From a virus: a stretch of DNA of 64,000 bases. Where the stretch lies: IMG/VR virus record IMGVR_UViG_3300025520_000001, positions 1-64,000 of that record. The stretch is one strand, 5' to 3'. Every line of letters starts with the position of its first letter. Within the stretch, counting starts at the first letter, position 1. The notes under the pieces were generated by a model. That model was given only the letters and a program-made list of their open reading frames with translations. It ran no database searches and was not told where the DNA came from. Shown here piece by piece: positions 8,431-63,309 of this stretch. The position numbers and the translations under genes were made by a program.

Positions 8431-9567
8431 TTACTTCTTGTCCACACCAGTCGCGCGGTTCACCTTGATGTTGCTCTTCATCACGGCGATGAGCTCGGGG
8501 TGATCCTTGACGAACTGGTTGAGGAAGTCCGACATGCGACCCTTCGCCACGGCGTAGCCGCAACCCTTGATGAGGTTGGCCGTCTGGTCGGCGGGGATAA
8601 TCTTCGCGACCTCGACCATCGTGTCCTCATCGATCTGGTCCGGCGTGCACTTCTCCTTCTTGCCGCCGTAAGCCTTGATGATGGAGTCGACGGTGACCGG
8701 AATCATGTCGCCACGGTACGTATCCTGAGCGCAGTGTTCCTTCAGGCGCTTGATCGCACCCTTGCGGTCCTTGAGGAGCTCCTGGGCGGTGACCGGCGCC
8801 TGATCGAAGCAGTACGAGTGGTACTCGTTGCCGATGTCCTTGCCGAGGATGCCGCACACCGTGATGCGGTGGAGCATGCGATTGTTCTGGCTGAGGCCGG
8901 CGCGTTCAGCAGCATTCACCTTGCTCCAGGTACGGGGCGAGATGTACTTGCCGTTCTGACCGAGCTCCTTGGGCGTCTTGTACACCCAGACACCGTTGCC
9001 GACGAAGCGCTGGATGTTGGCGTCCCAGTTCTTCTGCTCCATGAACTCCATGAACGTGAGCGCGTCGTACTCGACTTCGAATTCTTCGAAGCGGTCCTTA
9101 AGCGCCGCATCCATCGTGTTCACGTCGTACTCGGACGAGTCCGGGTTGACGCACGCAGCGATCATCCAGCCGGGCGGAAGGGTGTAGTTGTGAACCTTGC
9201 GGTCCGTGAGGAGCTGCATGAGGCAGTTCATGACGCCCGTCGTGCCGCGGTTCGGTTCCTCGAGGAGGATGAGACCGCTGCCGCTCGTCGGCCAGAACTC
9301 AGGGAGTCGGTGGCACGTGCGTTCGATGCCGTTGGCATCCTTGCTCGTCTCGGGGAACCCGATCAGGTCGGGAGCTTCGAGATACGCGATGCGGAGGTCG
9401 AGAAACCCGAACTTGGGGTCGATTTCACGCTGCTTGCCGACCCACTGCTGAACGATCTGCGACTTGCCGAGACCGGCGTCGCCCGTGAACATCGGGTTGA
9501 CGATTTCACCGATCTCGTTGGCCTTCTTTGCGAGATCGAGCACTGCATTGATATTAGATGGCTTCAT
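8431..9567 (-). CDS. MoxR-like AAA+ ATPase (AAA_5 type)
   Basis: 378 aa. Walker A FTGDAGLGKSQIV; Walker B LILLEEPNRG. Confidence 0.85.
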   Translation of the reverse strand: MKPSNINAVLDLAKKANEIGEIVNPMFTGDAGLGKSQIVQQWVGKQREIDPKFGFLDLRIAYLEAPDLIGFPETSKDANGIERTCHRLPEFWPTSGSGLILLEEPNRGTTGVMNCLMQLLTDRKVHNYTLPPGWMIAACVNPDSSEYDVNTMDAALKDRFEEFEVEYDALTFMEFMEQKNWDANIQRFVGNGVWVYKTPKELGQNGKYISPRTWSKVNAAERAGLSQNNRMLHRITVCGILGKDIGNEYHSYCFDQAPVTAQELLKDRKGAIKRLKEHCAQDTYRGDMIPVTVDSIIKAYGGKKEKCTPDQIDEDTMVEVAKIIPADQTANLIKGCGYAVAKGRMSDFLNQFVKDHPELIAVMKSNIKVNRATGVDKK

Positions 9568-18891: not shown

Positions 18892-19248
18892 TCACTGACC
18901 GGCGGGCTTTTCGTCGTCATCCGCGCGGCCCAGCTGAGCTTCGAGCTGACGCTCGAACACCAACTCATCGTTGGCCAGGGCATTTTCGGGCTTCACCTGC
19001 GCGAAGACCTCATCCTGGAACACCGGGTGAGTGCTGCGCATGATGATGTCAGAGAGCTGGAACTTCAGCTCCTGCTGGTTGGCCAGCGTGGGCTCCTTGA
19101 TGAAGCCATCGATGGCGCTCTGCAACTCCGTGGGAACCGGGATCTCGAAGAACTGAAAGAACTTCGCACACTCCTGGACGTCCTCAGGAGTGATGACGAC
19201 GAGGTTCTTGTTCTCCAGGTCATTGCCATTATTGCTATTCTTGCTCAT
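18892..19248 (-). CDS. acidic hypothetical protein
   Basis: ORF track 118 aa; GC-rich. Confidence 0.7.
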   Translation of the reverse strand: MSKNSNNGNDLENKNLVVITPEDVQECAKFFQFFEIPVPTELQSAIDGFIKEPTLANQQELKFQLSDIIMRSTHPVFQDEVFAQVKPENALANDELVFERQLEAQLGRADDDEKPAGQ

Positions 19249-26964: not shown

Positions 26965-26965
26965 G

Positions 26966-27038
26966 TAGCGGACGTCGGAGTCGAACCGACTGTTCTCAGG
27001 TTATGAGCCTGCTGTGTAAACCGTTTCACTCGCCCGCT
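26966..27038 (-). tRNA. tRNA-Met: tRNA-Met/Ile2-type (anticodon CAU)
   Basis: Minus-sense AGCGGGC..GTG-AAACGGTTTA-CAC..GCAGG-CTCATAA-CCTGA..GTCGGTTCGACTCCGAC-GTCCGCT. 3-bp D-stem; one mismatch in the anticodon stem. Confidence 0.8.
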
Positions 27039-32008: not shown

Positions 32009-32353
32009 TTAGTCACCCTGCTCGCGTGAGCGACGGATGGCAGCCTGAAGAACCGCCTTGACAGCCTTGAACTTGATGTTCTTGCTCTTCGCGAAGGACT
32101 CGAAGCTCGTGTGACCGAGGCTGTTGCAGATCGCGAGCTTGGCCTTCGTCGTCGTGACACCGGCCTCCTTCGCAACCTTCTCGAGCATGCCAGCAAGGTT
32201 CGTACGGCCCTTGGCAGCAGCCGTGGTTCGCACGTTGAACTGCGGGCTCAACGGATCACTGTTCTTCCACGTCTTGCGATTAGGCGACGTGGTGTAGCTC
32301 TTGCCGTCATGGAACTTGTTCAACACCTTGCTGAGGAATGTACTTGTCTTCAT
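32009..32353 (-). CDS. basic hypothetical protein
   Basis: ATG at 32353 with GGAGAAAG upstream (ORF 32009..32362). Confidence 0.65.
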   Translation of the reverse strand: MKTSTFLSKVLNKFHDGKSYTTSPNRKTWKNSDPLSPQFNVRTTAAAKGRTNLAGMLEKVAKEAGVTTTKAKLAICNSLGHTSFESFAKSKNIKFKAVKAVLQAAIRRSREQGD

Positions 32354-32399
32354 GTTTATCACTTTCTCCGTTTCTTTTACTTCTGGGTTAGTGCTGCTG

Positions 32400-35271: not shown

Positions 35272-35505
35272 CTAGCTGTCCCGCTTCACTGCAATAAAAG
35301 TACCAACAAGAGTTCCTAGCGCAGCGGGAACCATAATCCATCGGTCTTCTACAATCAGAAGAGTGAGAGAGGCGCCGATGAGATAGATGGCGACTGACCA
35401 CAAGGATGCAGGAACTGCCTTCTTGTTTGAGACACCTGAAATGTACTTAGCCCAACCATAGTCGAGCAGAATCATTAGAAAAAATGTTGCGATGTATTTG
35501 GTCAT
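35272..35505 (-). CDS. small membrane protein
   Basis: ORF track 77 aa, two or three TM helices. Confidence 0.6.
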   Translation of the reverse strand: MTKYIATFFLMILLDYGWAKYISGVSNKKAVPASLWSVAIYLIGASLTLLIVEDRWIMVPAALGTLVGTFIAVKRDS

Positions 35506-35629
35506 GAACTTTTTACCAGAAAAAGTCTATAGTGGGCTTCACGGTACGTTTGATATGAACAAAGACCTAGATAATACACTGCGATTAATAAGTCGCGCAC
35601 CGCCACCTGATAATGTATCGTGGGCATTA

Positions 35630-35872
35630 TCATATCTTGACATTAACAGCAATAATCGGAGTAGGAATTTCAAGTACTTCTTTAGTGGCTTCTACTGTAA
35701 CTGTGAACGAAAGTCTCTTGCCAATTTCCTTAACGAAGGAATCAGCTGTGCCGTTAAAAGAAGCTACGTAACGGCTTATGGCGTGATCAGCGTCAAGAGC
35801 ATAGAAAGATTTCGGGTGACGCCAGGAACCAACTACAGTATACATTCGTCTCAGCTCACATACGCGTTTCAT
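35630..35872 (-). CDS. hypothetical protein
   Basis: ORF track 80 aa. Confidence 0.6.
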   Translation of the reverse strand: MKRVCELRRMYTVVGSWRHPKSFYALDADHAISRYVASFNGTADSFVKEIGKRLSFTVTVEATKEVLEIPTPIIAVNVKI

Positions 35873-35974: not shown

Positions 35975-36103
35975 CTAGTGCGCACCAGTAACCACCAAAA
36001 AATGAGCGTTAGCGTAACTTGTTTTACAACACAGCTTCAATCGGTAGATACAGTCTAAAATCGCAAACACAGACGTGCGTGCATCAAGGTCTTTTTGGTC
36101 CAT
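35975..36103 (-). CDS. LxL mini-protein family member (42 aa)
   Basis: Hand-translated MDQKDLDARTSVFAILDCIYRLKLCCKTSYANAHFLVVTGAH. GGGAGA 12 nt upstream. Confidence 0.4.
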   Translation of the reverse strand: MDQKDLDARTSVFAILDCIYRLKLCCKTSYANAHFLVVTGAH

Positions 36104-36122: not shown

Positions 36123-36167
36123 ACAAAAATAGGTCAGGATAGGCCGCTAAGCACTATCCTGACCTAT
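36123..36167 (-). terminator. rho-independent terminator
   Basis: 14-bp stem ATAGGTCAGGATAG / CTATCCTGACCTAT with an 11-nt loop, followed by TTTTTG in minus sense; lies 33 nt after the 36200 stop. Confidence 0.65.
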
Positions 36168-36199: not shown

Positions 36200-36661
36200 T
36201 TACCCCTGCTGCGGAAGGAGGTGACGAAGGCTCTCGGGAATGGCGGCCACGTTCACCGTCTTCTTGGGCTTCAACTCGTTGATCCGCTTGTCGATCTCGA
36301 GCTGGATCTCCGACTTCGCCGTCTCATCGGTGGTGACCGAGAGGAGCGTGCGCATGGCCTTGAGCGTCTCGTCGCCCGAACCCGTGCGGGTACCCGGGTT
36401 CTTGGCCATGTAAGCCACATTGCCATTGAGCCGCTTGTCCTTGCGGAGCCAATTGCTCACGAGTCCGCTGACATACGCGGAGAGCTTGGCGCTGTCGGAC
36501 GCATCGCCCTGATAGACGATCTCTCCGGCCTGGAAACCCGCGATGAGCGCGGCCTGAACCTTGCCGCGCTCATCCTTGGTGAGCTCAACAGCTTCGCTGA
36601 ACTCAGTGGAACCACGAACATCACAAATCGCCTGAAAAACTGCATCCTTCTGCTTGGACAT
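36200..36661 (-). CDS. NWLRKDKR-family protein, paralog 1
   Basis: 153 aa. SNWLRKDKRLNGNVAYMAKNPGTRTGSGDETLKAM...LPESLRHLL aligns along its whole length with 58837..59292 and 62460..62924. Confidence 0.8.
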   Translation of the reverse strand: MSKQKDAVFQAICDVRGSTEFSEAVELTKDERGKVQAALIAGFQAGEIVYQGDASDSAKLSAYVSGLVSNWLRKDKRLNGNVAYMAKNPGTRTGSGDETLKAMRTLLSVTTDETAKSEIQLEIDKRINELKPKKTVNVAAIPESLRHLLPQQG

Positions 36662-36772
36662 ACATTCCTTTTACTTGTTTAAACTACGAGAAAACTGCCA
36701 CAGTAACAACTTCCCAACCCATTTGGGACACAAGATGTTTGTTTCGGATTCGTATCGTAAGACAACGAGTGG

Positions 36773-37294
36773 TTACCACTCCCACTCATTTACGTATTTG
36801 TCTCGCATGTTCGGCCAGATCCTGTAGCGAATAAGGGCCAACTGATTTTTGCGAGTGAAATAACTAAAACTACCAGTCCCCACGCAACAGCCGCACACAC
36901 CCATGCTATTCTTTGAGGGGTCAGAAGAGTATCCACTGCCCTTGCACACAGGACACGTGCCGTCAGGATGTTCGTTGATTCGCTTCTTCTCTGCCTCGTA
37001 CTTGTCTTTCTTATTTTGCTTTTCCTTGGCCATGAAGGCGATACGCTCGTCGCACGCGTGTGGTAACCCGTAACTCTCAGTGAGAACCATTTTCTTTCCT
37101 TTAGAAATGGGGTCAACCTCTTCAGCCCAATGGAGGTCACTGGATGTACAGTACTTGCACTTCACTGCCTTAAGTTCATTGTCAGCACAAAAGTGCTTCC
37201 TCGCAGTGTTCTCGTCGAATAGAGTCCACTTACCATTGATAGACTTTTCCCAGTAAACTTTCTCCGCGCCGCAGCGCTTGCACCTAGTACTCAT
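36773..37294 (-). CDS. zinc-ribbon repeat protein (paralog of 12719..13423)
   Basis: 173 aa. RCKRCGAEKVYW...KHFC and KCKYCTSSDLHW...PHAC repeats, plus CPVCKGSG...CGCCVGTG. Confidence 0.7.
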   Translation of the reverse strand: MSTRCKRCGAEKVYWEKSINGKWTLFDENTARKHFCADNELKAVKCKYCTSSDLHWAEEVDPISKGKKMVLTESYGLPHACDERIAFMAKEKQNKKDKYEAEKKRINEHPDGTCPVCKGSGYSSDPSKNSMGVCGCCVGTGSFSYFTRKNQLALIRYRIWPNMRDKYVNEWEW

Positions 37295-37460
37295 CTTCTT
37301 CCTCTATCTCAAGCAAGTTGGTGTCACAAGTAATAGCTCGGTCATATGTGCGCTGACTAATCATGTCCATCTTGACCATCATCCATATCACGGTTGTTAT
37401 GGAGCGATCTACTCGGAACATTTCACCCCTAGTCCAACACCACTTTGGCTGATTATTCAT
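37284..37460 (-). CDS. LxLIS mini-protein family member (58 aa)
   Basis: ATG at 37460 with GGAG 7 nt upstream. ...TTVIWMMVKMDMISQRTYDRAITC... Confidence 0.4.
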   Translation of the reverse strand: MNNQPKWCWTRGEMFRVDRSITTVIWMMVKMDMISQRTYDRAITCDTNLLEIEEEDEY

Positions 37461-37504
37461 AAGGTAGCTCCGTTCGCAAGAGTTACGCTCGGCATGAATA
37501 AGCC

Positions 37505-37810
37505 TTACCGAACTTTCCACTTTTCATTCTTGAGGTTCGCGATGCTCATGATCGCATCCTCTGCTTTTTGCCAGCGAGGACTGCATTCGCAAGGCTTGCT
37601 GCTTTCGATCCAATCTCCATTGTGGCCATTCTCGAAACTATCATCTATTTCACCGTAGCCGTGACAAATAGGACAGTTGGGCTTGGGATTCACCTTAATG
37701 GGTCGTCCACCGTCTTCACACACCCTGCGGATTTTAGCAAGCCGCGCCTTGACATCCTTTAACTCCGCACGAAGAGCTGAAAGCTCAGCTGAATTATGCG
37801 CGTTGCTCAT
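37505..37810 (-). CDS. hypothetical protein with CPICHGYG zinc motif
   Basis: ATG at 37810 (MSNAHNSAELSALRAEL...) in ORF 37505..37912. ATGA overlap with the upstream stop. Confidence 0.6.
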   Translation of the reverse strand: MSNAHNSAELSALRAELKDVKARLAKIRRVCEDGGRPIKVNPKPNCPICHGYGEIDDSFENGHNGDWIESSKPCECSPRWQKAEDAIMSIANLKNEKWKVR

Positions 37811-40006: not shown

Positions 40007-40300
40007 TTACTCCTTGTTGAGAAGGAGAGCCTTCAGCGCCCGCGACAAGGCAAGCCGTTCGCCGCGCTTGGCATTCGGGGTGTCCCGCGGGTTGCGCTTG
40101 GCCTCGCCCACGAAGACCTTCTTCTCGTAGTTAATCATGGCAATTGTGAAGTTGCCGTGGGTGATGGTTGTGGTCTGCGCGTTGTTATTGAGGTCCTCCG
40201 TGTCCACACACATGGCCTCGTGGTTGGCGTTATCTTCCTTCAGGGCCGCGCGCATCACACCGGGAAGCATCTCGATCAGCACACTATTATCGACTCGCAT
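40007..40300 (-). CDS. hypothetical protein (DUF1876-like, tentative)
   Basis: 97 aa. GEAKRNPRDTPNAKRGERLALSRALKAL. Confidence 0.6.
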   Translation of the reverse strand: MRVDNSVLIEMLPGVMRAALKEDNANHEAMCVDTEDLNNNAQTTTITHGNFTIAMINYEKKVFVGEAKRNPRDTPNAKRGERLALSRALKALLLNKE

Positions 40301-42527: not shown

Positions 42528-42544
42528 GACCAATGCTTTCTTTG

Positions 42545-42644
42545 TGGAGAAGCCGGGACTCGAACCCGGTTCAATCGCCGCTAACTATGCCGTAACCCAG
42601 CATTGCCCTTTCTGCGAGGCGATTACAGCGCTGGGAGCTTCCCC
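42545..42644 (-). ncRNA. 100-nt tRNA-like RNA with G3:U70 acceptor and non-tRNA core
   Basis: GGGGAAG...CCGGGTTCGAGTCCCGG-CTTCTCC-A. Acceptor and T-arm are canonical. The 59-nt core has a 7-bp stem AATCGCC/GGCGATT and a possible pseudoknot CCCAGC/GCTGGG. Confidence 0.45.
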
Positions 42645-42652
42645 ATTACTAC

Positions 42653-42985
42653 TTACTTCTCGAACGGCAGACCACAACCGTATTCCTTCTCCTTCAGCCT
42701 GGTCAGTGTGTTCTGCACGACTGTCTTGTCGACTGGTGACAACTTCTTTTCATCGAGCATTGCGATGTTGTAGCAGAGCCCACGCAGCCTCGCGATGACC
42801 TTGAGATATTTCCTCTCAGTCTTTGACTTCGCCTTCTTCTTGGACTTTTTATGAGTCTTCGCTTCACATTTGCTACACACTTTACCGCTATTGCCAATGA
42901 AATACTTGGTCCCGACTTGTTTGCTACACACCGAGCAGTAGGGTGCTTCCCAGCCCTTGGTGTCAAAAACAGTTACTTTAATCAA
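42653..42985 (-). CDS. zinc-ribbon, Lys-rich hypothetical protein
   Basis: 110 aa. CSVCSKQ...CSKCEAK. Confidence 0.65.
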   Translation of the reverse strand: MIKVTVFDTKGWEAPYCSVCSKQVGTKYFIGNSGKVCSKCEAKTHKKSKKKAKSKTERKYLKVIARLRGLCYNIAMLDEKKLSPVDKTVVQNTLTRLKEKEYGCGLPFEK

Positions 42986-55524: not shown

Positions 55525-55959
55525 TTAGTCGTTCAAGAAGTTCTTGACGGTGTTGAGGTACAGCCGGCGGTTGAAGAAGAGCTCCCTCACCGCCTCAACC
55601 CGAGGGTTGTCGAACAGAGACGTGTAGTTGCGACCGGAATTGGTATTCTTGAGGTGACCCACGAAGTACTCCACGAGGTCCTTGGCCTCCTTGAGGCCGA
55701 TGCGGTTGTCTCCGTTGATGGTGGCACCGCCAATCTCGCGGATCACCTTGATGCAGTCGATGTGGCTGGGGTTGTCGCTACCCAACATCGAGATGAGCTG
55801 ATCCAGCTTGACCTCGAGGTTGCGCTGCTCAACCGTGATCACGTTGGTCTGAGCAAACTCGTTCTGCAGCTGACGGAGGAGATCCAGCGCCTCAGCTTCG
55901 GCGAGTCGAAGTTCATGAGCGTTGAGGATGAGGGTGTACGAGCGCTTGAGCGTGACCAT
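55525..55959 (-). CDS. protein with ribosomal bL12 (L7/L12) C-terminal-domain-like segment
   Basis: 144 aa. [30 protein letters not shown] versus E. coli bL12 [21 protein letters not shown], with 10 identical consecutive residues ([10 protein letters not shown]). Confidence 0.7.
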   Translation of the reverse strand: [144 protein letters not shown]

Positions 55960-56064: not shown

Positions 56065-56205
56065 CTAGAACAGTCTGTGTCTAAGTCGAGTCATCACTAT
56101 TATTCCTGTGTCGACTTTTATGATTCCGAGATTTACCATCATGCGCAGCACATCGTGATAGTGGTTGTACTCGTCTCTAGAAATCATTGTTATGACTGAG
56201 TCCAT
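56065..56205 (-). CDS. LxLIS mini-protein family member (array III-5, 46 aa)
   Basis: MDSVITMISRDEYNHYHDVLRMMVNLGIIKVDTGIIVMTRLRHRLF. Confidence 0.45.
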   Translation of the reverse strand: MDSVITMISRDEYNHYHDVLRMMVNLGIIKVDTGIIVMTRLRHRLF

Positions 56206-56339
56206 GGTTTCTTTGCCATAGTTTTCGTGGCTTCCACTCTGCTATCTTCGGCGATTAGACCCAAATCCTTTAACAGCCAAAAGAAAAAGTATAGTCGCCT
56301 GCGCTGCGGCTGGCTTAGTTTTAGATCACTTTCTTCCAT
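56190..56339 (-). CDS. LxLIS mini-protein family member (array III-4, 49 aa)
   Basis: MEESDLKLSQPQRRRLYFFFWLLKDLGLIAEDSRVEATKTMAKKPWTQS. Confidence 0.45.
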   Translation of the reverse strand: MEESDLKLSQPQRRRLYFFFWLLKDLGLIAEDSRVEATKTMAKKPWTQS

Positions 56340-56452
56340 ATCAATCTTGAAACTTCAAATCTTGTCTGCTCTGAGACAAGTTTTAGGTCCAACATCAGCC
56401 ACACTAATCCGTATAGCTGTTCTGCACGCTCAACAGTTATTTGTTTAAGCAT
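56321..56452 (-). CDS. LxLIS mini-protein family member (array III-3, 43 aa)
   Basis: MLKQITVERAEQLYGLVWLMLDLKLVSEQTRFEVSRLIWKKVI. Confidence 0.45.
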   Translation of the reverse strand: MLKQITVERAEQLYGLVWLMLDLKLVSEQTRFEVSRLIWKKVI

Positions 56453-56478
56453 TAATGCTCATTGCTCACGCAGTTGCT

Positions 56479-56610
56479 TTACTTAAGCATCTTTGGGAGA
56501 CGCGCTGCAGCGAGCCTTGTCGCTATTTGTCTAGTATTCATTCCGATAAGCTTTAGGTCCACCATCATCCAGAGGAAATGATAGAGCGCATAGTATTTAC
56601 TTGGTTGCAT
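56479..56610 (-). CDS. LxLIS mini-protein family member (array III-2, 43 aa)
   Basis: MQPSKYYALYHFLWMMVDLKLIGMNTRQIATRLAAARLPKMLK. Confidence 0.45.
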   Translation of the reverse strand: MQPSKYYALYHFLWMMVDLKLIGMNTRQIATRLAAARLPKMLK

Positions 56611-56734
56611 TATACTTCTTCCTCAAGAATTTGCAGATCTTGCTCCTAGATTCCTTGCCGATAAGGCCAGCAAAGGACAGAACCCATATAAAATTGTTGT
56701 ACCTGTAGAATTCTGGCGGATTAAACAGAATCAT
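56597..56734 (-). CDS. LxLIS mini-protein family member (array III-1, 45 aa)
   Basis: MILFNPPEFYRYNNFIWVLSFAGLIGKESRSKICKFLRKKYNATK. Confidence 0.45.
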   Translation of the reverse strand: MILFNPPEFYRYNNFIWVLSFAGLIGKESRSKICKFLRKKYNATK

Positions 56735-57177: not shown

Positions 57178-57281
57178 CGCACCGCCAACCAGGTGTATGA
57201 AGATGACGTAGTCGGAGGGAGCGCAGTATGCATTATCAAGAAGAACGGCCGAACTACGGGGGGTTAGTCCGCCACGTCATC

Positions 57282-57662
57282 TCACTTCTTTTCGTTAAGG
57301 AGCTCGAAGAACTGCTTTGCTCCGTCTTCCTTCGAGATGATGCCTGCGTCGACCGCCAGCTTGATGAGCTGGAACTTGTCGTTGGGCGTCCCGCTCGAGG
57401 CCGGCGCCTTCTGCTTGGGGTTCACCCACGACTCGATGAGGCACGTCGGCTGCCGGCCGACGATGTAGTTGAGCGGATTGCTGAACGCGCGGGTTCCCGG
57501 GCGGATGCTCCAACGACCCTGCTGGAGCCAACCCATCATGATCTCGCCCACCTTCTTGCGCTGCTCATCGGTGATGACGAGGTTGCCGCGCACAGGCGCG
57601 TGGCCGAGGACCTGCTGAAGGGCGGTGCGGAGAGCGTCCTGCTGCGAATTGAACTTGTCCAT
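57282..57662 (-). CDS. diverged NW[LV]RKDKR-family paralog
   Basis: ATG at 57662 with AAAGGA upstream. VITDEQRKKVGEIMMGWLQQG and LNYIVGRQPTCLIESWVNPKQK parallel the family blocks. Confidence 0.65.
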   Translation of the reverse strand: MDKFNSQQDALRTALQQVLGHAPVRGNLVITDEQRKKVGEIMMGWLQQGRWSIRPGTRAFSNPLNYIVGRQPTCLIESWVNPKQKAPASSGTPNDKFQLIKLAVDAGIISKEDGAKQFFELLNEKK

Positions 57663-57876
57663 GGTAGTTTCCTTTTTTGTCAACTTTAAGTGGGAACCAA
57701 TTTCCCATCTCGTATCGACAGGTGAATATATGTTCGGATTAGTTCTTCACCTGTAGTTCGACAGCATTATCACTTCTTGTACTTATTCAACAGTACGGCA
57801 CGTGTTTAGTTCCTGATAATGGCGGGACTGGCGAGAGCAAAGAGAGCGGTGAAGGAGCCGATGAGATAGAAGGCGA

Positions 57877-58005
57877 TCACAGCTTCACCTTCTTGCTGGT
57901 CTGCTGGAGATTCACCTTCAGGAGCTGAACCACGAGCTTTCTGAGCTCGCGAACCTTGGCCTGCAGCTTACGGATCTTCTTGTGGTTGTGTGGCTTACGC
58001 TTCAT
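57877..58005 (-). CDS. highly basic small protein (42 aa)
   Basis: Hand-translated MKRKPHNHKKIRKLQAKVRELRKLVVQLLKVNLQQTSKKVKL. GAAAGGA RBS. Confidence 0.45.
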   Translation of the reverse strand: MKRKPHNHKKIRKLQAKVRELRKLVVQLLKVNLQQTSKKVKL

Positions 58006-58018
58006 GGCTTGTGTCCTT

Positions 58019-58222
58019 TCACGTCTGCTTGTAGAAGTTCGTGGTCAATACCGACATGCGGTAGTTCTCAGTCTCGTCCAGCGTTTCGACTTCCATGGTG
58101 AGACCGTGGTCTTCTATGACCCGAACGCGGACTTCAGAGCCATCTTGGTAGCGGATCACACCAACTTGACCCACAGTCTCGTTTCGTCTCTTCAACTCTT
58201 CCTGTCGCTGTTCTTCGGTCAT
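58019..58222 (-). CDS. hypothetical protein
   Basis: ORF track 67 aa. Confidence 0.6.
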   Translation of the reverse strand: MTEEQRQEELKRRNETVGQVGVIRYQDGSEVRVRVIEDHGLTMEVETLDETENYRMSVLTTNFYKQT

Positions 58223-58225
58223 GGC

Positions 58226-58459
58226 TCACACCTTCGGAAGGAGTTCTTCCATTGTTTCGAGGATGAACTGCTTGAGTTTAAGCTCAAACTGTTCCCAGAG
58301 TACAGCAGCTCCAAGCGGGTCTACCTGCTCGTGTGGAGCATCGTGAAGGACGTAGCCAATCATAGTCGCAGCATCAGCTGGACTAATGGTGCCATTGAGC
58401 AGCTGATTCCTGATGGAGAGCAGCTCAATGTACGTCCGCCTCACCTTGATATGGGCCAC
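58226..58459 (-). CDS. hypothetical protein
   Basis: ORF track 77 aa. Confidence 0.6.
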   Translation of the reverse strand: MAHIKVRRTYIELLSIRNQLLNGTISPADAATMIGYVLHDAPHEQVDPLGAAVLWEQFELKLKQFILETMEELLPKV

Positions 58460-58467
58460 AAGTACTC

Positions 58468-58701
58468 CTAACAGCCTGCGTGACGTGCTTTGTCGCGGGC
58501 CATGATGATAGCCTCATCGCGGCCGGTCCACCCCTCTTGGTTGAGGTATTGCTCCCATTCCATCTGGAAGTCTTCGGTCTTTCCCCCGAGTTCTTCTGCG
58601 AACGAAGCGAGAAACTCCTTCTTCTCCTCGACACGCTCTTCTTTGGTGAGCTCGTTCCACAGGAGCTTGTTGCGGTCACGCAAAGTCGTGTTCCTTTCCA
58701 T
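58468..58701 (-). CDS. hypothetical protein
   Basis: ORF track 77 aa. Confidence 0.6.
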   Translation of the reverse strand: MERNTTLRDRNKLLWNELTKEERVEEKKEFLASFAEELGGKTEDFQMEWEQYLNQEGWTGRDEAIIMARDKARHAGC

Positions 58702-58728
58702 GCTTTGTTGGGGACAAGCGTATTTATG

Positions 58729-58807
58729 TTCGGTTTAGTACCGAGCCTCAGCGTAGCAGTGTCAGCGCAAACAGTTCCACCCCATCCCCTGTACGAGCGG
58801 GATGGGG
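58729..58807 (-). promoter_or_regulatory. regulatory cassette (hairpin + CTGACACTGCTACGC + CCGAAC box)
   Basis: Hairpin ccccatccc / gggatgggg at 58780-58807; 15-mer at 58751-58765; ttcggt at 58729-58734. Confidence 0.55.
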
Positions 58808-58836
58808 CGGGAACCTGATGGCCTGTGACCTCGAGG

Positions 58837-59292
58837 TTACTTCGTCTGTACGAGGTGGCGGAGGCTCGGCGGGAGCGCTTCCACGTTGACCTCGACGCGC
58901 GGCCTGAGCTCCGCCTGGCGAGCCTCGATGGCCTTCTGGATCTCCTGCTTGGCCGCCGGGTCGGTGGTGATGGCCAGGAGGCTCTTCATCGCCTTGATGC
59001 TCTCGTCGCCGCTGCCGCTCCGCGAGCCCGGGTTCTTGGCGACGTACTGCGTGCCGCCGTTGAGCCGCTTGTCCTTGCGGAGCCAGTTGTTGACCAGGCC
59101 CGGCACGTACTTGCGGATGGCCACCTCGTCCGCGTTCTTGCTGTGCTGCGTGACGCCGAGCAGGAACATCTGCACCACCATATCGTGGATCTGCGTGAGC
59201 TGCTGCTTGGTCGGCTGGTACGCCTCGCCGTTGCTCTCGCCCATGACCTGCGTCACCGCCTGGAAGACCGCTTCACCCTGAGTGATCGACAT
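58837..59292 (-). CDS. NWLRKDKR-family protein, paralog 2
   Basis: 151 aa. VNNWLRKDKRLNGGTQYVAKNPGSRSGSGDESIKAM...LPPSLRHLV. Confidence 0.8.
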   Translation of the reverse strand: MSITQGEAVFQAVTQVMGESNGEAYQPTKQQLTQIHDMVVQMFLLGVTQHSKNADEVAIRKYVPGLVNNWLRKDKRLNGGTQYVAKNPGSRSGSGDESIKAMKSLLAITTDPAAKQEIQKAIEARQAELRPRVEVNVEALPPSLRHLVQTK

Positions 59293-59508
59293 ACTGTTTA
59301 CCTTTCAACTGCATGCTACGTGGTTAGTGTTACGACTACGTTTACGGTTTTAGCTAAGCTTTATTGCTCGCGTTATAACCGTGTTGGGTTGTACTTCATG
59401 GTTGAACTACGACTACGCTTCTTACGACTATGATAGACTTTATTGTCCATCATCATCGTGAATGTTTTTAGGTTCGGAAACGTGAGGTAAGGTGCGGAAC
59501 TAATTACA

Positions 59509-59631
59509 CTAATTAGCTCGACGAGCGAAAAGGTTATTTGCTATAGCCTTATGGGTGGCTTTCGACATGAGTCTAAAGCACTTTATCATGTAGCAAAAAT
59601 TCAGCACCACAATAATCTGTCGGTAGGACAT
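59509..59631 (-). CDS. LxL mini-protein family candidate (40 aa)
   Basis: MSYRQIIVVLNFCYMIKCFRLMSKATHKAIANNLFARRAN. Confidence 0.35.
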   Translation of the reverse strand: MSYRQIIVVLNFCYMIKCFRLMSKATHKAIANNLFARRAN

Positions 59632-59639
59632 ATTTTCTA

Positions 59640-59939
59640 TCACATGGTGTCCAATCGCTCGTCCCAGATATATTCAGTGAGCACCGAGTCAGTAGAGGCA
59701 CTGATGAGTTTTAAGTCTCGCAGAGTCGCGAGAAAGTCAAATACTACCCACACTACCTCTCTGTTTAACTTCCCCATGGTCCTTATTTCAGGTGTCCTGG
59801 TCACGTACACGCACCAACTCCTCTTGCGCGTCGCTACGCGCCCACATAAAGTCCATGACTTTTCTATCCGTCTCTGCCGAGATGATTCCAAGTAGTCGAA
59901 GTCCCCAAAGCAGATGTCTGACCCTGTAAACACCGCCAT
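59640..59939 (-). CDS. two-unit LxLIS family protein (99 aa)
   Basis: ORF track. Unit 1 ICFGDFDYLESSRQRRIEKSW; unit 2 VVWVVFDFLATLRDLKLISASTDSVLTEYIW. Confidence 0.5.
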   Translation of the reverse strand: MAVFTGSDICFGDFDYLESSRQRRIEKSWTLCGRVATRKRSWCVYVTRTPEIRTMGKLNREVVWVVFDFLATLRDLKLISASTDSVLTEYIWDERLDTM

Positions 59940-60133
59940 CAGATACCTTTATCATACCTCAACCTATATATGAGGATGCTCATTGCGTGGCTATCTGTCT
60001 TCCCGCTGATTAGCCCCATCAATCGGAGCAATAGTAGAAACAAGCCAATTCTGTTCGTGGCGGTGTGTTGCCACTCCCCACTCCCACCGCCACCGCCACC
60101 GTTAATTATGCTTGATCCCATTGGAGTATTCAT
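59939..60133 (-). CDS. LxLIS mini-protein family member (64 aa)
   Basis: ORF track. RIGLFLLLLRLMGLISGKTDSHAMSILIYRL, with a Gly6 run near the N-terminus. Confidence 0.5.
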   Translation of the reverse strand: MNTPMGSSIINGGGGGGSGEWQHTATNRIGLFLLLLRLMGLISGKTDSHAMSILIYRLRYDKGI

Positions 60134-60245
60134 GTGTGAACTTCAACATCACTTCGTGATCTGTCTTCCAGCTGACAAGGCCCAACTCTCGCATCAGGAA
60201 TAGCAGACGAGAGGTGCGGGTGAGTGTGATCCAGTCGCCCTGCAT
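60102..60245 (-). CDS. LxLIS mini-protein family member (47 aa)
   Basis: MQGDWITLTRTSRLLFLMRELGLVSWKTDHEVMLKFTHEYSNGIKHN. GAGGA 8 nt upstream. Confidence 0.45.
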   Translation of the reverse strand: MQGDWITLTRTSRLLFLMRELGLVSWKTDHEVMLKFTHEYSNGIKHN

Positions 60246-60299
60246 ACGAATAGTCCTCACGAGCTTTTACACCCTCCCGTAATTCCCATTAAGTTCGGA

Positions 60300-60650
60300 A
60301 TAGCTACTACACCTCTCTACACACCTACACTAAAATCGACTTACCAACGACTATCCTATATACTCTCCCTTACAGCTATACTAATACTCTGTAATACACA
60401 CTCTATCCCTATCCTCAATACTGTCTATAGGGGAAGGGAGGAATACTCCATATCAGTACTACTCTGTATCCCTAGAGGAGGGAGAAACTAGCCACTTCAA
60501 GCCTGTAACCTGCAGTATTTATTAGGAGAGGTGTGAAGAAAAGTCCAGTGTGGCCGCAGTCACTGCAAGGCCACCTGACTTATCAAGGGCTTACGCTTGG
60601 CCCCATGTGCGCCATCATGCTACATCCCTGTCCCCCTGCATGCCCATATA
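60300..60650 (-). pseudogene. decayed copies of the LxLIS mini-protein family (ORF-free stretch)
   Basis: Minus-sense MQGDRDVA*WRTWGQA*ALDKSGGLAVTAATLDFSSHLS* (compare 60102..60245) and ..VLRIGIECVLQSISIAVRESI*DSRW*. The family motif is interrupted by stops. Confidence 0.35.
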
Positions 60651-60654
60651 TCTG

Positions 60655-60680
60655 TTCGGAGCCCGGCGTAGCAGTGTCAA
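60655..60680 (-). promoter_or_regulatory. regulatory cassette, compact copy (TTGACACTGCTACGC-6 nt-CCGAAC)
   Basis: gcgtagcagtgtcaa at 60666-60680; ttcgga at 60655-60660. Preceded by a polypurine/polypyrimidine imperfect palindrome at 60684-60716. Confidence 0.5.
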
Positions 60681-60723
60681 CACCCTCTTCCTCCCTCCTC
60701 TATAGGGAGAAGGGAGAGAAACA

Positions 60724-60873
60724 CTAGGGAGAAAAGGGGAAGGATTGCCAGTCGTAATAGATCTTTCTCTTAGTATCTAGAGAGATTAGATGTAAGCGAT
60801 AGAGGACGTCGGCCAATCTATATAGCTTTATTCGAGATCCATGCAGCCCGATTCGAGATTGATTACTCTTCAT
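60724..60873 (-). CDS. LxLIS mini-protein family member (array I-h, 49 aa)
   Basis: MKSNQSRIGLHGSRIKLYRLADVLYRLHLISLDTKRKIYYDWQSFPFSP. Confidence 0.45.
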   Translation of the reverse strand: MKSNQSRIGLHGSRIKLYRLADVLYRLHLISLDTKRKIYYDWQSFPFSP

Positions 60874-61012
60874 AGTTAGGCGGAGCCTTGGCCCACTCCC
60901 TCCAGGTCATTACTATCACTTGCTCTCTGGTACTAAAGGAGATGAGATTTAGGCGATAGAGGACCTCATAGAGACTATAGAGGAAGTTGCGTTTAGTTAT
61001 GTTGAGCTTCAA
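60863..61012 (-). CDS. LxLIS mini-protein family member (array I-g, 49 aa, TTG start)
   Basis: (M)KLNITKRNFLYSLYEVLYRLNLISFSTREQVIVMTWREWAKAPPNYEE. Confidence 0.4.
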   Translation of the reverse strand: MKLNITKRNFLYSLYEVLYRLNLISFSTREQVIVMTWREWAKAPPNYEE

Positions 61013-61013
61013 T

Positions 61014-61151
61014 TCATTCTCTATCCCAGAATTGGGTCAGAAGATTGAGGCGAGTCTCATTAGAGATTAGGCCCAGGAGATAGAGGATCCAAGTGAAGTA
61101 GCGGATCTCTTCATATTTGCTTGCACTTATTTTTTGGTTCGGAGGAGGCAT
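61014..61151 (-). CDS. LxLIS mini-protein family member (array I-f, 45 aa)
   Basis: MPPPNQKISASKYEEIRYFTWILYLLGLISNETRLNLLTQFWDRE. TAATG overlap with I-e. Confidence 0.45.
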   Translation of the reverse strand: MPPPNQKISASKYEEIRYFTWILYLLGLISNETRLNLLTQFWDRE

Positions 61152-61285
61152 TAGTGTCTCCTAGTCCAGAGACTATTTATGTTCCTCATGCGGGTCTGGT
61201 AAGAGATGATCTGTATCCTATAGAGGAATATAGAGATCTTGTGGATGTGTAGGTAGGCTTCGTGGTTGAGAGTGTTGAGGTTCAT
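61151..61285 (-). CDS. LxLIS mini-protein family member (array I-e, 44 aa)
   Basis: MNLNTLNHEAYLHIHKISIFLYRIQIISYQTRMRNINSLWTRRH. TGATG overlap with I-d. Confidence 0.45.
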   Translation of the reverse strand: MNLNTLNHEAYLHIHKISIFLYRIQIISYQTRMRNINSLWTRRH

Positions 61286-61422
61286 CAGTATCTCCTGTCC
61301 CACAGTATGTCTAGGGTACGCATGCGGGTCTTACGGGAGATAAGCTGCAGTGTGTACAGCATGTAGCTTACATTGATGAGGTGTATGTACTGTTTGTGGT
61401 CTATGCGTTGAGCTATTACCAC
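61285..61422 (-). CDS. LxLIS mini-protein family member (array I-d, 45 aa, GTG start)
   Basis: (M)VIAQRIDHKQYIHLINVSYMLYTLQLISRKTRMRTLDILWDRRY. Confidence 0.4.
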   Translation of the reverse strand: MVIAQRIDHKQYIHLINVSYMLYTLQLISRKTRMRTLDILWDRRY

Positions 61423-61583
61423 AGCGGCATCTCGTCCAGGATGGAGTCATTAGCACTGCGCCTGGTCACCTCAGAAATGAGTCCCAGCTGCATCAGCACG
61501 TATATGAAGTCAGCTATCTTATAACCCTGCTGACGAGAGTACTTGAAATGGGGTTTCCGCTCCCCTTTGTAATTAAAGGTCAT
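61416..61583 (-). CDS. LxLIS mini-protein family member (array I-c, 55 aa)
   Basis: MTFNYKGERKPHFKYSRQQGYKIADFIYVLMQLGLISEVTRRSANDSILDEMPLW. ATG immediately follows the I-b stop. Confidence 0.45.
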   Translation of the reverse strand: MTFNYKGERKPHFKYSRQQGYKIADFIYVLMQLGLISEVTRRSANDSILDEMPLW

Positions 61584-61733
61584 TCAGTAATGGAGGTAGA
61601 TGGCATTGATAGCACGAACTCTAGTCGCCTCAGAGATGAGGCCTAGGATAGAGAGTACGGCCAGGAAGTCGGCCTGGCAGTAATACTCGTCCCAAGTAGA
61701 GTTGTAATTAGCGGTTGAAGTCGACACGGGCAT
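61584..61733 (-). CDS. LxLIS mini-protein family member (array I-b, 49 aa)
   Basis: MPVSTSTANYNSTWDEYYCQADFLAVLSILGLISEATRVRAINAIYLHY. Confidence 0.45.
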   Translation of the reverse strand: MPVSTSTANYNSTWDEYYCQADFLAVLSILGLISEATRVRAINAIYLHY

Positions 61734-61866
61734 AAGAGTTTAAAAGGGCTTTCGTGCGGCTTTCAGCGCCGCAGAGCCTCAGGAAGTACATGGTCCACAG
61801 GATGTAACTGATGGAGGTGCGCTCTAAGAAGGTGAAAGAGCGCCCGCGAGGTTCCTGCGCCTCCAT
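61708..61866 (-). CDS. LxL mini-protein family member (array I-a, 52 aa)
   Basis: MEAQEPRGRSFTFLERTSISYILWTMYFLRLCGAESRTKALLNSYARVDFNR. ATGA overlap with the stop of 61866..62255. Confidence 0.45.
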   Translation of the reverse strand: MEAQEPRGRSFTFLERTSISYILWTMYFLRLCGAESRTKALLNSYARVDFNR

Positions 61867-62255
61867 CAGTGAGAGTCGATGAAGGCCTGGAGCTCTTTCA
61901 CCTTCTCGCTGTAGAGGTGGATGCTGCTGCCGTACTTGTGGAGGTACTCGACGAGTCCCTTGGCGTACTCCTTGGCCTCATTGCCCTGGAGCGTCTCTGC
62001 CTGGCTGATGAGCTTGTCTCCCTCCACATCGCAGACGTGGTAGAGCTTGCCTTCGTGCTCGGAGAGCCAGCTGTTGGTGAAGTCTTCCCACTCTTCCAGC
62101 TCGCTGGACTCCTCGAGGAGCTCGGTCTCAGCAGTGACCATGAGCTCATGGTCGATGTAGCTGTAGCACCAGCCGCCATCCCAGGCATACTTGACGTGGC
62201 TCTCATTCACCTGCTCAGTGAACTGCTGCTTCAGCTGCTCGAGCTTGTCGCTCAT
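61866..62255 (-). CDS. acidic hypothetical protein
   Basis: ATG at 62255 (MSDKLEQLKQQF...) with GCAAGGAGCAAAGCC upstream. ORF 61866..62306. Confidence 0.75.
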   Translation of the reverse strand: MSDKLEQLKQQFTEQVNESHVKYAWDGGWCYSYIDHELMVTAETELLEESSELEEWEDFTNSWLSEHEGKLYHVCDVEGDKLISQAETLQGNEAKEYAKGLVEYLHKYGSSIHLYSEKVKELQAFIDSH

Positions 62256-62293
62256 GGCTTTGCTCCTTGCTAGGGCGTGTGAGCACTTATACG

Positions 62294-62356
62294 TTCGGCG
62301 AAGCAACTGCCCCTAGGCGTAGCAGTGTCAGCCGGCTCTGTACTAGCAGCCGGCTG
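62294..62356 (-). promoter_or_regulatory. regulatory cassette (hairpin + CTGACACTGCTACGC + CCGAACGTATAAG)
   Basis: Hairpin cagccggc...gccggctg at 62329-62356; 15-mer at 62317-62331; ttcggc at 62294-62299. Confidence 0.55.
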
Positions 62357-62459
62357 CACCACTCTGAGCCAAGTCATCTCCGGAGCAGGGAGCACGCTCA
62401 GACTGGAGGGAGTGCCGTCCCTCGTTTCCTAGACTCGCCTCTACGCTCGCTCCTACTAC

Positions 62460-62924
62460 TTACTTCACGAAGGCCCGCAGGTGCTCGGGCAGCTTGCTGA
62501 TGTCGAGCTGGACCTTCGGCTTGAGCTCTTCGAGGCGCTTGTCGATCTCCGCCTGCACGGCCAGCTTGGCCTCGGGGTCGGTCACCACGGAAAGCAGGAC
62601 CTTGAGGTTCTTGAGCTGTTCGTCACCGCTGCCGGTGCGGGAACCGGGATTCTTCGGGGCGTAGGTGACGCCACCGTTCATCCGCTTGTCCTTCCGCACC
62701 CAGTTGTTGGTGAGGCCGGGGATGTACTTCTTCAGCGAGATCTCGTCGTTGCCGCCCGAGTTCTTCTGCACCTCGCCGTTGAGGAAGCCGAGGAGGATGC
62801 GCTCGTGGACCTTTTCCGTCTGGTCCTTGGTCCACTGCGTGGTCGACGGCACCGGGCCATCGAGCTTGCCATCGTTGCCGAAGACGGAGAGAACCGCGAG
62901 GTACACCAATTCGCCCTGAGTCAT
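62460..62924 (-). CDS. NWVRKDKR-family protein, paralog 3
   Basis: ATG at 62924 (MTQGELVYLAV...) with CAAGGAGCAATACC upstream. TNNWVRKDKRMNGGVTYAPKNPGSRTGSGDEQLKNL...LPEHLRAFV. Confidence 0.8.
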   Translation of the reverse strand: MTQGELVYLAVLSVFGNDGKLDGPVPSTTQWTKDQTEKVHERILLGFLNGEVQKNSGGNDEISLKKYIPGLTNNWVRKDKRMNGGVTYAPKNPGSRTGSGDEQLKNLKVLLSVVTDPEAKLAVQAEIDKRLEELKPKVQLDISKLPEHLRAFVK

Positions 62925-63008
62925 GGTATTGCTCCTTGCTTGGACTACGTTCGAGTTGGACTGCACTATGATGAACTCTATGCTTCGTTCATCGTGACCT
63001 AATATAGG

Positions 63009-63063
63009 TTCGGATGAGTCGGAGCGGGTGCGTAGCAGTGTCAGCGGGCATGGTGACCCGCTG
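63009..63063 (-). promoter_or_regulatory. regulatory cassette (hairpin + CTGACACTGCTACGC + CCGAACCTATATT)
   Basis: Hairpin cagcggg-catggtga-cccgctg at 63042-63063; 15-mer at 63030-63044; ttcgga at 63009-63014. Confidence 0.55.
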
Positions 63064-63090
63064 CATAGCTTACTTCGTGGGAGTAGTGAG

Positions 63091-63309
63091 TTAGGCTGCG
63101 CGGCGGGTGTTCTGGTCGAGGTCCAGCGCCTTGATGCCCTTGCCGTTGAGGAAGCCGAGCATCACCGGGTCAGAGACCTGGACAGCGTCGTCGAACCACG
63201 AGGCGAGCGGCTTGTCGCTCTCCACCTCGTCGAACTCAGCACGCTGGAAGAAGGGGTCGAAGGAGCCGAGCAGGACGCTGAGAGAGTTGGGGTACGAGAT
63301 GAAGTGCAT
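63091..63309 (-). CDS. short protein related to the N-terminal domain of the NW[LV]RKDKR family
   Basis: 72 aa. DPVMLGFLNGKGI compares with HERILLGFLNGEV of 62460..62924. CCAAGGAGAGCAACC upstream. Confidence 0.6.
   Translation of the reverse strand: MHFISYPNSLSVLLGSFDPFFQRAEFDEVESDKPLASWFDDAVQVSDPVMLGFLNGKGIKALDLDQNTRRAA

Follow-up and report, generated by a model that had tools for sequence, protein, structure and literature searches.

A multi-copy family of small basic proteins with high-expression signatures and promoter-like gene units in an uncultured phage of about 172 kb

The stretch of DNA analysed here, 64,000 nucleotides of an uncultured phage (IMG/VR record IMGVR_UViG_3300025520_000001, positions 1 to 64,000; called the window below), carries nearly all of its genes on the minus strand, and the parent phage is ~172 kb long. 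The subject of this report is a family of proteins of about 150 amino acids (aa) that the window encodes in several copies (Table 1). Three full-length paralogs, named below by the first coordinate of their genes as 36200, 58837 and 62460, were found as minus-strand open reading frames (ORFs) where the original prediction, made by a model from the sequence letters, had placed them, and their proteins align end to end with 45-48% identity. The blocks that it had described as shared, GL(V/T)(S/N)NW(L/V)RKDKR(L/M)NG, KNPG(S/T)R(S/T)GSGDE, LL..TTD..AK and LP.SLRHL, are all present. With 53 family sequences as its basis, a family hidden Markov model (HMM) was run on every window ORF of 30 aa or longer, 739 in all. 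It matched exactly these three ORFs, with E values from 2e-73 to 3e-62, and the next-best match had an E value of 0.014. The alignment is thus significant, and the paralogy of 36200, 58837 and 62460 is far beyond chance. The 62460 protein has an N-terminus, MTQGE, that agrees with those of its homologs, and its start is likely the ATG at 62924 rather than the upstream GTG at 62966. The 36200 copy is displaced ~22 kb downstream, within a tRNA-rich region.

Table 1. Family genes, their relatives and flanking elements in the 64-kb window (GC3, GC content at third codon positions; pI, isoelectric point)
Feature	Position	Strand	Remarks
Full-length family paralog	36200..36661	minus	153 aa, pI 8.6, GC3 0.78; HMM E = 3e-62
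Full-length family paralog	58837..59292	minus	151 aa, pI 9.4, GC3 0.95; HMM E = 2e-73
Full-length family paralog	62460..62924	minus	154 aa, pI 9.05, GC3 ~0.9; HMM E = 1e-63
N-terminal-region relative	57282..57662	minus	126 aa, GC3 0.87; own 43-member subfamily
Acidic ORF resembling 62460 locally	63091..63309	minus	72 aa, pI 4.4
Promoter-like box TCCGAACCTATATT	63001..63014	minus	76 nt upstream of 62460 start
Promoter-like box TCCGAACCTAAAAA	59465..59478	minus	172 nt upstream of 58837 start; leader opens with strong hairpin
Promoter-like box TCCGAACATATATT	57725..57738	minus	upstream of 57282-57662
Weaker CCGAA box (AATCCGAAACAAAC)	36743..36748	minus	upstream of 36200-36661
Hairpin (GCAGCGGG...CCCGCTG) overlapping 14-mer TGACACTGCTACGC	63030..63064	minus	PeSL-like cassette upstream of 62460 box
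Stem-loop in 62460 leader	62963..62998	minus	a few nt past promoter-like box; RNAfold
Terminator-like hairpin (AGGTCAGGATAG...CTATCCTGACCT) and T-run	36125..36165	minus	directly 3' of 36200 gene; read from sequence
Hairpin (CCCCATCCC...GGGATGGGG) and 14-mer CTGACACTGCTACGC	58751..58807	minus	between 58837 gene and CCGAAC box at 58733
14-mer TGACACTGCTACGC, then box CCGAACGTATAAG	62293..62330	minus	downstream of 62460; putative promoter of non-family gene 61866-62255

A fourth full-length paralog lies just beyond the window, at window-equivalent positions ~64135-64599 on the parent contig (Logan SRR6212578_6315, 172,526 bp). Its product has 154 aa and is 78% identical to 62460, and the locus of this contig that was compared (L060) is identical to the window at 15,164 of 15,164 positions across the overlap.

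The ORF at 57282-57662, which had been described as a diverged relative, accounts for the HMM match at E = 0.014, and that match is confined to 47 N-terminal residues. When its subfamily was aligned with the main family, hhalign gave a probability of 82.7% and an E value of 9.6e-6 over 69 N-terminal columns, which upholds the relationship for this region. The core RKDKRLNG...KNPGSRSGSGDE is missing, and both the middle part (RWSIRPGTRA.SNPLNYIVGKQPTCLIEAWV) and the C-terminus are different; with the core absent and the N-terminal match standing by itself, the protein is related through the N-terminal helical region alone. A public gene call places a 153-aa ORF on the opposite strand (L060 11604-12065, equal to window positions 57228-57689, plus strand). 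Since the minus-strand protein is kept in 43 homologs and its gene has a ribosome-binding site (RBS) and a promoter box, the minus-strand gene is shown to be the real one.

The acidic ORF at 63091-63309 gave no family-HMM match in the search of all window ORFs. It resembles the adjacent 62460 locally: BLASTP aligned 12 of 30 identical residues (E = 4e-4), the two genes share a run of 18/18 identical nucleotides, and the Smith-Waterman score of 47 was reached by none of 2000 shuffles. This similarity is confined to helix 2 of 62460, and comparison with the 36200 and 58837 paralogs gave chance-level scores. The sole homolog is at locus L005, on a contig that carries the protein at 100% identity. 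Judged from these alignments, 63091-63309 is probably a local duplication remnant or a chimera and not a family member, so that the local match noted earlier stands and the membership does not. The original count of five members was accordingly too high: there are three full members in the window and one outside it, together with one N-terminal relative and one fragment-like ORF.

Outside this phage the family is widespread. Homologs of ~150 aa each form 961 clusters at 90% identity, with no Pfam domain and no name beyond 'hypothetical protein'. An exhaustive profile search of 1.84 billion representatives returned 740 clusters at 50% identity, 495 of them with E < 1e-10. The family was met only on uncultured phage contigs, several at 146-178 kb. 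In 57 IMG/VR loci there are usually 2-4 same-strand copies per 20 kb, and a neighbour-joining tree shows old paralog clades together with repeated lineage-specific duplications; the 58837 clade, for example, has orthologs at 60-75% identity in related contigs. The multi-copy state and the pattern of duplication fit selection for dosage or diversification. The family is almost always a stand-alone protein. Longer homologs add low-complexity sequence only, as Gly/Arg-rich (NRGG) or KGG-repeat N-terminal tails or as acidic C-terminal tails, and no enzymatic domain was found in them. Two homologs, P0130 and P0152, have N-terminal fusions to YciG/GsiB-like KGG stress-protein repeats (PF10685, E = 2e-7 for P0130) and to Gly/Arg-rich low-complexity sequence. 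The idea that short contigs holding the gene alone are transcripts was dropped; at least one of them (L066) is a low-coverage (~1.7x) metagenome fragment.

A megablast search with the region found no cultured relative, and a tblastn search of 50,697 phage records with two family members (one of the two at E <= 1) gave no match. The marker proteins of the window (ligase, ClpP-like protease and MoxR ATPase) share at most ~36% identity with cultured phages. Among GTDB species genomes, the family occurs only in contigs binned into metagenome-assembled genomes of unrelated taxa; these are probably mis-binned phage DNA, and they therefore give no prophage or host signal.

The predicted structure and the conservation of the family were then compared. 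Two AlphaFold models were made, with mean pLDDT values of 86.6 and 93.3; the latter is the AlphaFold2 model of the 58837 protein from a 120-sequence alignment (pTM 0.69). It has six predicted helices (residues 5-17, 29-44, 56-73, 97-108, 112-129 and 142-147) and, between the third and the fourth, an ordered segment without regular structure at residues 74-96 (pLDDT 82-86). Among the three window paralogs, identity is 27-39% in the N-terminal 61 residues, 69-78% in the core (residues 62-97) and 40-52% in the C-terminal part. The core is where most of the conservation lies. Among 120 representatives, Q5 and Y62 are invariant, and conservation reaches 90% or more at G65, N69, K73, N78, Y83, P88, G89, R91, D96, L105, P141 and L144. 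Q5, Y62, N69, K73, N78, Y83, P88, G89, R91 and D96 are all polar, aromatic or Gly/Pro. The core has a net charge of +3, and the pI of the family is 8.6-9.4. The conserved N-terminus, MxQ[KG]EAV, belongs to helix 1 and is modelled at pLDDT >90.

The prediction that these motifs belong to no characterised family was borne out wherever it was checked (Pfam, PHROGs, NCBIfam, PDB by sequence and by fold, and cultured phages). Pfam, PHROGs and NCBIfam gave no above-threshold match for any of the three paralogs. In a per-member Pfam scan of 120 diverse members, no family recurred in more than 8, and the best E value of the most recurrent one was 0.017. Profile searches of the PDB with two alignments returned no match. 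The check by AlphaFold and Foldseek that had been proposed yielded a confident model and no characterised fold match: against the PDB (to April 2026) the best Foldseek E values were 0.66 and 1.2 for models 1 and 2, with TM scores of ~0.2, where fold membership was set at E <= 1e-3 or TM >= 0.5 to a characterised protein. Against BFVD, the sole match was A0A6J5KXM4, an uncharacterised homolog from an uncultured phage. A tail-fibre N-terminal domain of the P2 gpH type was considered and rejected; one paralog matched it weakly (phrog_10153, E = 0.0037; PF12571, E = 0.08), and the match was not recurrent among the 120 members. No tail genes were found near family copies. From the models and searches together, this is a new protein family, apparently with a new fold, within a familiar phage early-gene architecture.

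The family genes stand out from their surroundings in codon usage. As had been predicted, they are more GC-rich than their neighbours, with a GC content of 0.60-0.65 and a GC3 of 0.78-0.95, where most window genes have a GC3 of ~0.35-0.65. The difference is general in the family: of 53 evaluable loci, 51 showed a higher GC3 in the family genes than in the ORFs next to them, the mean difference being 0.15. The phage encodes tRNAs for A/U-ending codons, and in the window family genes the codons that these tRNAs read account for 0-5% of the relevant ones (none in the 58837 gene), as against 9-31% in most annotated window genes. On these codon signatures, the family probably ranks among the most highly expressed genes of these phages. 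The original prediction had likewise seen strong expression and had looked for it late in infection and in the virion. Its first part is supported by the codon signatures and by the promoter-like cassettes of the copies, whereas the late or virion assignment is not favoured by the position of the genes at the start of the gene arm or by their avoidance of phage-tRNA codons.

Ten tRNA genes lie on the minus strand between 11501 and 47196, nine of which were confirmed by Rfam; the tRNA-Met at 26965-27038 was without Rfam confirmation. A transfer-messenger RNA reported by ARAGORN at 42544-42692 was also not confirmed by Rfam and is probably a false positive. Eight of the ten tRNAs serve codons that are rare or end in A (Gly-TCC, Leu-CAA, Thr-TGT, Ala-TGC, Arg-TCT, Ile-TAT, Leu-TAA and Lys-TTT), and these eight complement the low-GC3 phage genes. 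A further class of minus-strand genes has a high GC3 as well (0.78-0.86 vs ~0.5), at 6138-7541, 8431-9567, 18892-19248, 32009-32362, 40007-40300, 55525-55959 and 61866-62306. This class includes the pair of MoxR-like ATPase and DUF2201 VWA/metallopeptidase protein, and its codon signature is as in the family.

Each family copy is an autonomous unit that consists of a box, a leader hairpin, the ORF and a downstream hairpin. A CCGAA box was found upstream of every member, in agreement with the original prediction. Its extended form, TCCGAAMNTAWAWW, was counted three times in the 64-kb window against an expectation of 0.02, once directly upstream of each of 57282, 58837 and 62460. The promoter-like box of the family has the form CCGAAC-N-TATATT, is without a -35 element and stands 62-172 nt from the start codon across family copies. 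By RNAfold, the leader hairpins of 62460 and 58837 begin within a few nucleotides of the box. Downstream of the same two genes, a GC-rich stem is followed by the 14-mer (C)TGACACTGCTACGC and then by the next CCGAAC box, and downstream of 36200 there is a classical stem with a T-run. The cassette of a hairpin and a conserved oligomer that had been noticed ahead of 62460 was recovered as the hairpin that overlaps the 14-mer.

Many further genes on the minus strand are preceded by a looser box, CCGAA(C)-N-TA, and bare TCCGAA showed no overall enrichment in the window. Between 56 and 64 kb, promoters of the sigma-70 type were not above chance (4 found, 5.7 expected) and no intrinsic terminator was detected on the coding strand. 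Rfam identified no RNA family in the leaders of the family genes. The ribosome-binding sites were read from the sequence. The context (G/C)CAAGGAG...CC-ATG that had been described is present in 62460 (GCAAGGAGCAATACC-ATG), in 63091 (CCAAGGAGAGCAACC-ATG) and in the non-family gene 61866 (GCAAGGAGCAAAGCC-ATG), with AAAGG-type sites in the other three; the site of 62460, GCAAGGAG, lies 7 nt ahead of the ATG.

The elements between the genes recur as a composite cassette, which consists of a hairpin, the 14-mer (C)TGACACTGCTACGC, a spacer of 6-18 nt and CCGAAC-N-TAtAtT, with minus-strand boxes at 63745, 63013, 62298, 60659 and 58733. The 14-mer is kept in distant relatives (loci L003, L012, L026 and L028). 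The promoter box drifts by lineage, through the forms CCGAAC, CCCGATC, CCTGAAAC and CCGACTC. A second conserved element, GAGGCCAGCGGGTnGCCAAAACCGA, was seen in L001, L003, L005, L011, L018 and L028. The 14-mer may also act as a promoter in its own right, one candidate reader being a phage RNA polymerase.

On the parent contig, a divergent switch lies just past the end of the window, where NUDIX and other genes are oppositely oriented, and a family copy is among the first genes after it. From 65 to 56 kb, family copies are interleaved with many tiny ORFs; these are followed by genes without assignment and then by the tRNAs (47-11 kb). Past the tRNAs come RNR, ThyX, a trypsin-like peptidase, an ATP-dependent ligase, AAA and MoxR-like ATPases and the DUF2201 VWA/metallopeptidase protein, and after these endonuclease VII and a ClpP-like protease (1074-1778, near 1 kb). 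Of the four full copies, three lie at the promoter-proximal start of this long one-directional arm, as do the two partial relatives.

Several other genes in this region were noted. About 20 tiny ORFs (41-64 aa), arranged back to back and often overlapping by a few nucleotides, share the pattern hhhW/Y-x-L-x-x-LGLIS-x-x-TR-x-x-h. They lie on the minus strand at 56065-56734, 59509-60260 and 60724-61866, and also at 35502-35633, 35975-36103 and 37284-37520. By reading of the ORF tables, this set is a second paralog family, larger than the 150-aa one, with which its genes are interleaved. Downstream of family copies there is often a gene for a small, very acidic protein (pI 4.1-4.5), for example 61866-62255 on the minus strand and genes at L029, L046 and L054, and an acidic subfamily (..SAPxAH[IV].V.S......[ED]E[IC]..IY..SEG.ND..) recurs 3' of the family genes at these three loci. 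There is no consistent downstream partner gene, since the 73 distinct neighbours comprise 34 acidic, 25 basic and 14 of intermediate pI. The minus-strand gene 55525-55959 (144 aa, GC3 0.83) contains CIKVIREIGGATINGDNRIGLKEAKDLVE and strongly resembles the motif of the C-terminal domain of ribosomal protein L7/L12. Its match to TIGR00855 has an E value of 0.0025, which is below the curated cut-off; on this resemblance, its product may be a translation-factor-binding mimic.

The organisation of the locus was compared with two systems described in cultured phages. SPO1's host-takeover module (gp37-gp60) consists of small early genes with the promoters and ribosome-binding sites of highly expressed genes (PMC6873191). 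Its products hit host DNA, RNA and protein machinery: Gp46 inhibits HU, Gp44 targets RNA polymerase and Gp49 binds RNA (PMC6873191, PMC8892312, PMC8208478, PMC10531801). Here, as there, blocks of mostly small genes stand at the start of what would be the early region, and a gene or mini-operon has its own promoter or promoter-like box and a strong RBS. The SPO1 module is made up of unrelated proteins, whereas the present locus carries multi-copy paralogs; no sequence or fold similarity was detected between the two, and the promoter-like boxes here are not sigma-70-like.

PeSL cassettes of the hyperplastic regions of T4-type phages, in which a stem-loop and a conserved early promoter flank small ORFs (PMC4122927, PMC2839356), are the second system. 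In the window, too, a stem-loop followed by a conserved promoter-like box flanks small uncharacterised ORFs, and gene order is shuffled between the window and the related locus L001. The flanking DNA therefore has the attributes of a cassette of the PeSL type, namely the recurrent hairpin, 14-mer and CCGAAC box (promoter-like by sequence) and the shuffled gene order. The differences are that the box, CCGAAC-N-TATATT, is without a -35 element, that there is an additional conserved 14-mer, and that this phage has a protease of the ClpP type, not of the T4 gp21 type, and no close cultured relative. A T4-type affiliation had been suspected from the PeSL-like cassettes and was dropped as unsupported, the protease being ClpP-like. 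PeSL is moreover the name of a DNA cassette and not of a protein. The family belongs to neither the SPO1 module nor the PeSL regions by homology, and its organisation resembles both.

In interpreting the family, we tentatively favour a role as abundant, pre-replicative host-takeover proteins that act in bulk, with a basic core that binds a universal target, most likely nucleic acid; this is a possible reading rather than a probable one. On it, these clade-specific, all-alpha proteins, small (~150 aa) and mildly basic, would be produced in very large quantities. They would be expressed from monocistronic units with host-preferred codons, before replication, in a host-takeover block that opens the leftward gene arm, and would act in bulk and not by catalysis. 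The core, Y62...N69-W70-x-R-K-D-x-R-L-N-G-G-x-x-Y-x-x-K-N-P-G-S-R-x-G-x-G-D96, would pack against the helices to form one conserved surface, and this surface would bind a target that very different hosts share, most likely nucleic acid (RNA, or DNA of host or phage). The variable N-terminal helices and the C-terminal LPxxLR tail would set the paralogs apart, for example in their choice of partner, in oligomerisation or in timing.

Family membership and copy number, codon bias, the anatomy of the cassettes, genomic position, the confident model without a fold match and the pattern of conservation were observed, whereas expression early and at a high level, action in bulk and a nucleic-acid target are inferred. 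Pre-replicative expression is suggested by the position at the start of the arm and by the avoidance of phage-tRNA codons. Bulk action is proposed on the ground that a catalyst or a regulator would gain little from gene dosage or optimised codons. The sampled family contigs span 35-54% GC across their loci, which points to probably very different hosts, and the core is nearly unchanged in 120 representatives, which argues for a universal ligand. Small size, arm-start position, a box for each gene, a strong RBS on some copies and codon bias fit the host-takeover class. Tails rich in Gly/Arg or in acidic residues are a typical feature of proteins that bind nucleic acid, for example SSB, gp32 and HMGB. 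Nucleic acid would be the simplest candidate, because the core is basic, because longer homologs carry RGG-like or acidic add-ons, and because phages are known to make use of early DNA-binding proteins that are small and basic. T4 Ndd, T4 MotB and SPO1 TF1 are comparable proteins; they have ~150-160 aa, are basic and early or abundant, and act on DNA stoichiometrically. The present family resembles them in size, basic charge and presumed early, abundant expression, and differs in that no sequence or fold similarity was found; TF1 has the HU fold, whereas this family is all-alpha and without a Foldseek match.

Several observations weigh against a nucleic-acid-binding takeover protein. Profile and fold searches detected no known DNA- or RNA-binding fold or motif, and the net charge of +2 to +4 is modest for a protein that coats nucleic acid. 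The conserved loop is ordered and packed in the model, and a compact pocket lined by polar and aromatic residues would suit a small molecule or a contact with another protein just as well. With regard to timing, the CCGAA-type box also stands before the later genes 7591, 9620 and 9713; since it precedes later genes and varies between phages, it may need a phage factor, in which case it would not be an immediate-early signal. The 36200 copy lies outside the promoter-proximal block, and abundant late structural proteins of phages typically show high codon bias as well.

A different universal target would be host machinery. The proteins would then be abundant early factors that dock on the ribosome or on RNA polymerase and reprogram translation or transcription, which we consider unlikely. 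The arguments from abundance, early position and a universal target apply equally to this proposal. A cell holds tens of thousands of ribosomes, and a stoichiometric binder would need such expression and gene dosage. The basic core, rich in Gly, Pro, Arg and Lys, resembles the extensions of ribosomal proteins, in resemblance only. The nearby high-GC3 gene 55525-55959, with its IKVIRE..GA...GLKEAKDLVE similar to the L7/L12 C-terminal domain, hints at a translation theme, but this match is weak, falling far short of the curated cut-off, and it concerns another gene. A precedent is provided by PhiKZ014, an abundant immediate-early protein that binds the ribosome, through 5S rRNA on the 50S subunit (PMC10914614). 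The likeness extends to conservation within a clade, a place among the first genes, a fold class that is unknown, high abundance and a universal host target, the last two being presumed for the present family (PMC10914614). No homology between PhiKZ014 and the family was detected, and the abstract on PhiKZ014 does not describe a multi-copy state. No sequence or fold similarity to ribosomal proteins or RNA polymerase binders was found either.

Slightly less probable are anti-defence sponges, which would soak up an immune signal derived from nucleotides or some other small molecule, like Acb2 and Tad1/Tad2 in function and non-homologous to them. Stoichiometric sequestration needs high early expression and gains from gene dosage, extra paralogs would raise capacity or widen specificity, and the repeated lineage-specific duplication resembles that of arms-race gene families. 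In the model, residues of the kind found in nucleotide pockets (aromatic Y62, W70 and Y83; basic K73, K86, R91 and R125; polar Q5, N69, N78 and D96) lie in an ordered, compact domain. Nonetheless, Foldseek showed no similarity to solved PDB structures up to April 2026, the core is nearly identical between paralogs, so that the ligand would not differ among them, and known sponges are usually single-copy.

Abundant late virion-associated proteins, that is, internal head or decoration proteins, were also weighed and appear improbable. Extreme codon bias and small basic proteins are also typical of internal proteins of T4-type phages and of major structural proteins, and the weak tail-fibre matches of one paralog point in the same direction. 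These matches concern 1 of 120 members and were not reproduced, and the family genes lie at the arm start among small ORFs, far from the sole structural-type gene seen, that of the ClpP-like protease. The conserved N-terminus is folded into the domain in the model, with no cleavable targeting peptide, and phage-tRNA codons are avoided. An internal head protein of the T4 type in particular was rejected, given that the N-terminus lies within the folded helix 1, that the protease is ClpP-like and not gp21-like, and that the genes are in the small-ORF block. Least likely are transcription factors or sigma-like specificity subunits for the clade-specific CCGA-type boxes: the lineage-drifting box suggests a co-evolving phage-encoded recogniser, and the family is helical, basic, rich in conserved aromatics and present across the sampled clade contigs, but the most strongly conserved portion of the protein does not follow the changes of the box, regulators need neither the highest codon bias nor 3-4 copies, and no sigma or helix-turn-helix fold match was found.

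The host-takeover interpretation can be put more broadly, and at this breadth we hold it with somewhat greater reserve. The family would be a new fold class of very abundant proteins that are made immediately on infection and seize some component found in all hosts, be it the ribosome, the nucleoid or a molecule of immune signalling, through their invariant Y-x6-NW-RKD-RLNGG-Y-KNPGSR-G-GD surface, with duplication tuning dose and partner specificity.

Among the many families of phage dark matter, this one is distinctive in its multiple copies, extreme expression signatures, near-invariant 35-residue core and confident model without a structural neighbour. It comprises hundreds of sequence clusters from environmental phages, yet has no annotation, cultured carrier or structural relative. 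With 3-4 copies, each with a strong box match and host-optimised codons, it is likely central to the first minutes of infection, and identification of its target would add a new principle of takeover or anti-defence. The invariant 35-residue core is a compact handle, and a possible tool if the target is a universal bacterial machine. Should the family prove to be a generic DNA-coating protein, it would still serve as a marker for the uncultured clade and its early regions. If it does act on a universal host component, it would represent an unrecognised mechanism of host takeover or anti-defence across an uncultured clade of ~150-180-kb phages.

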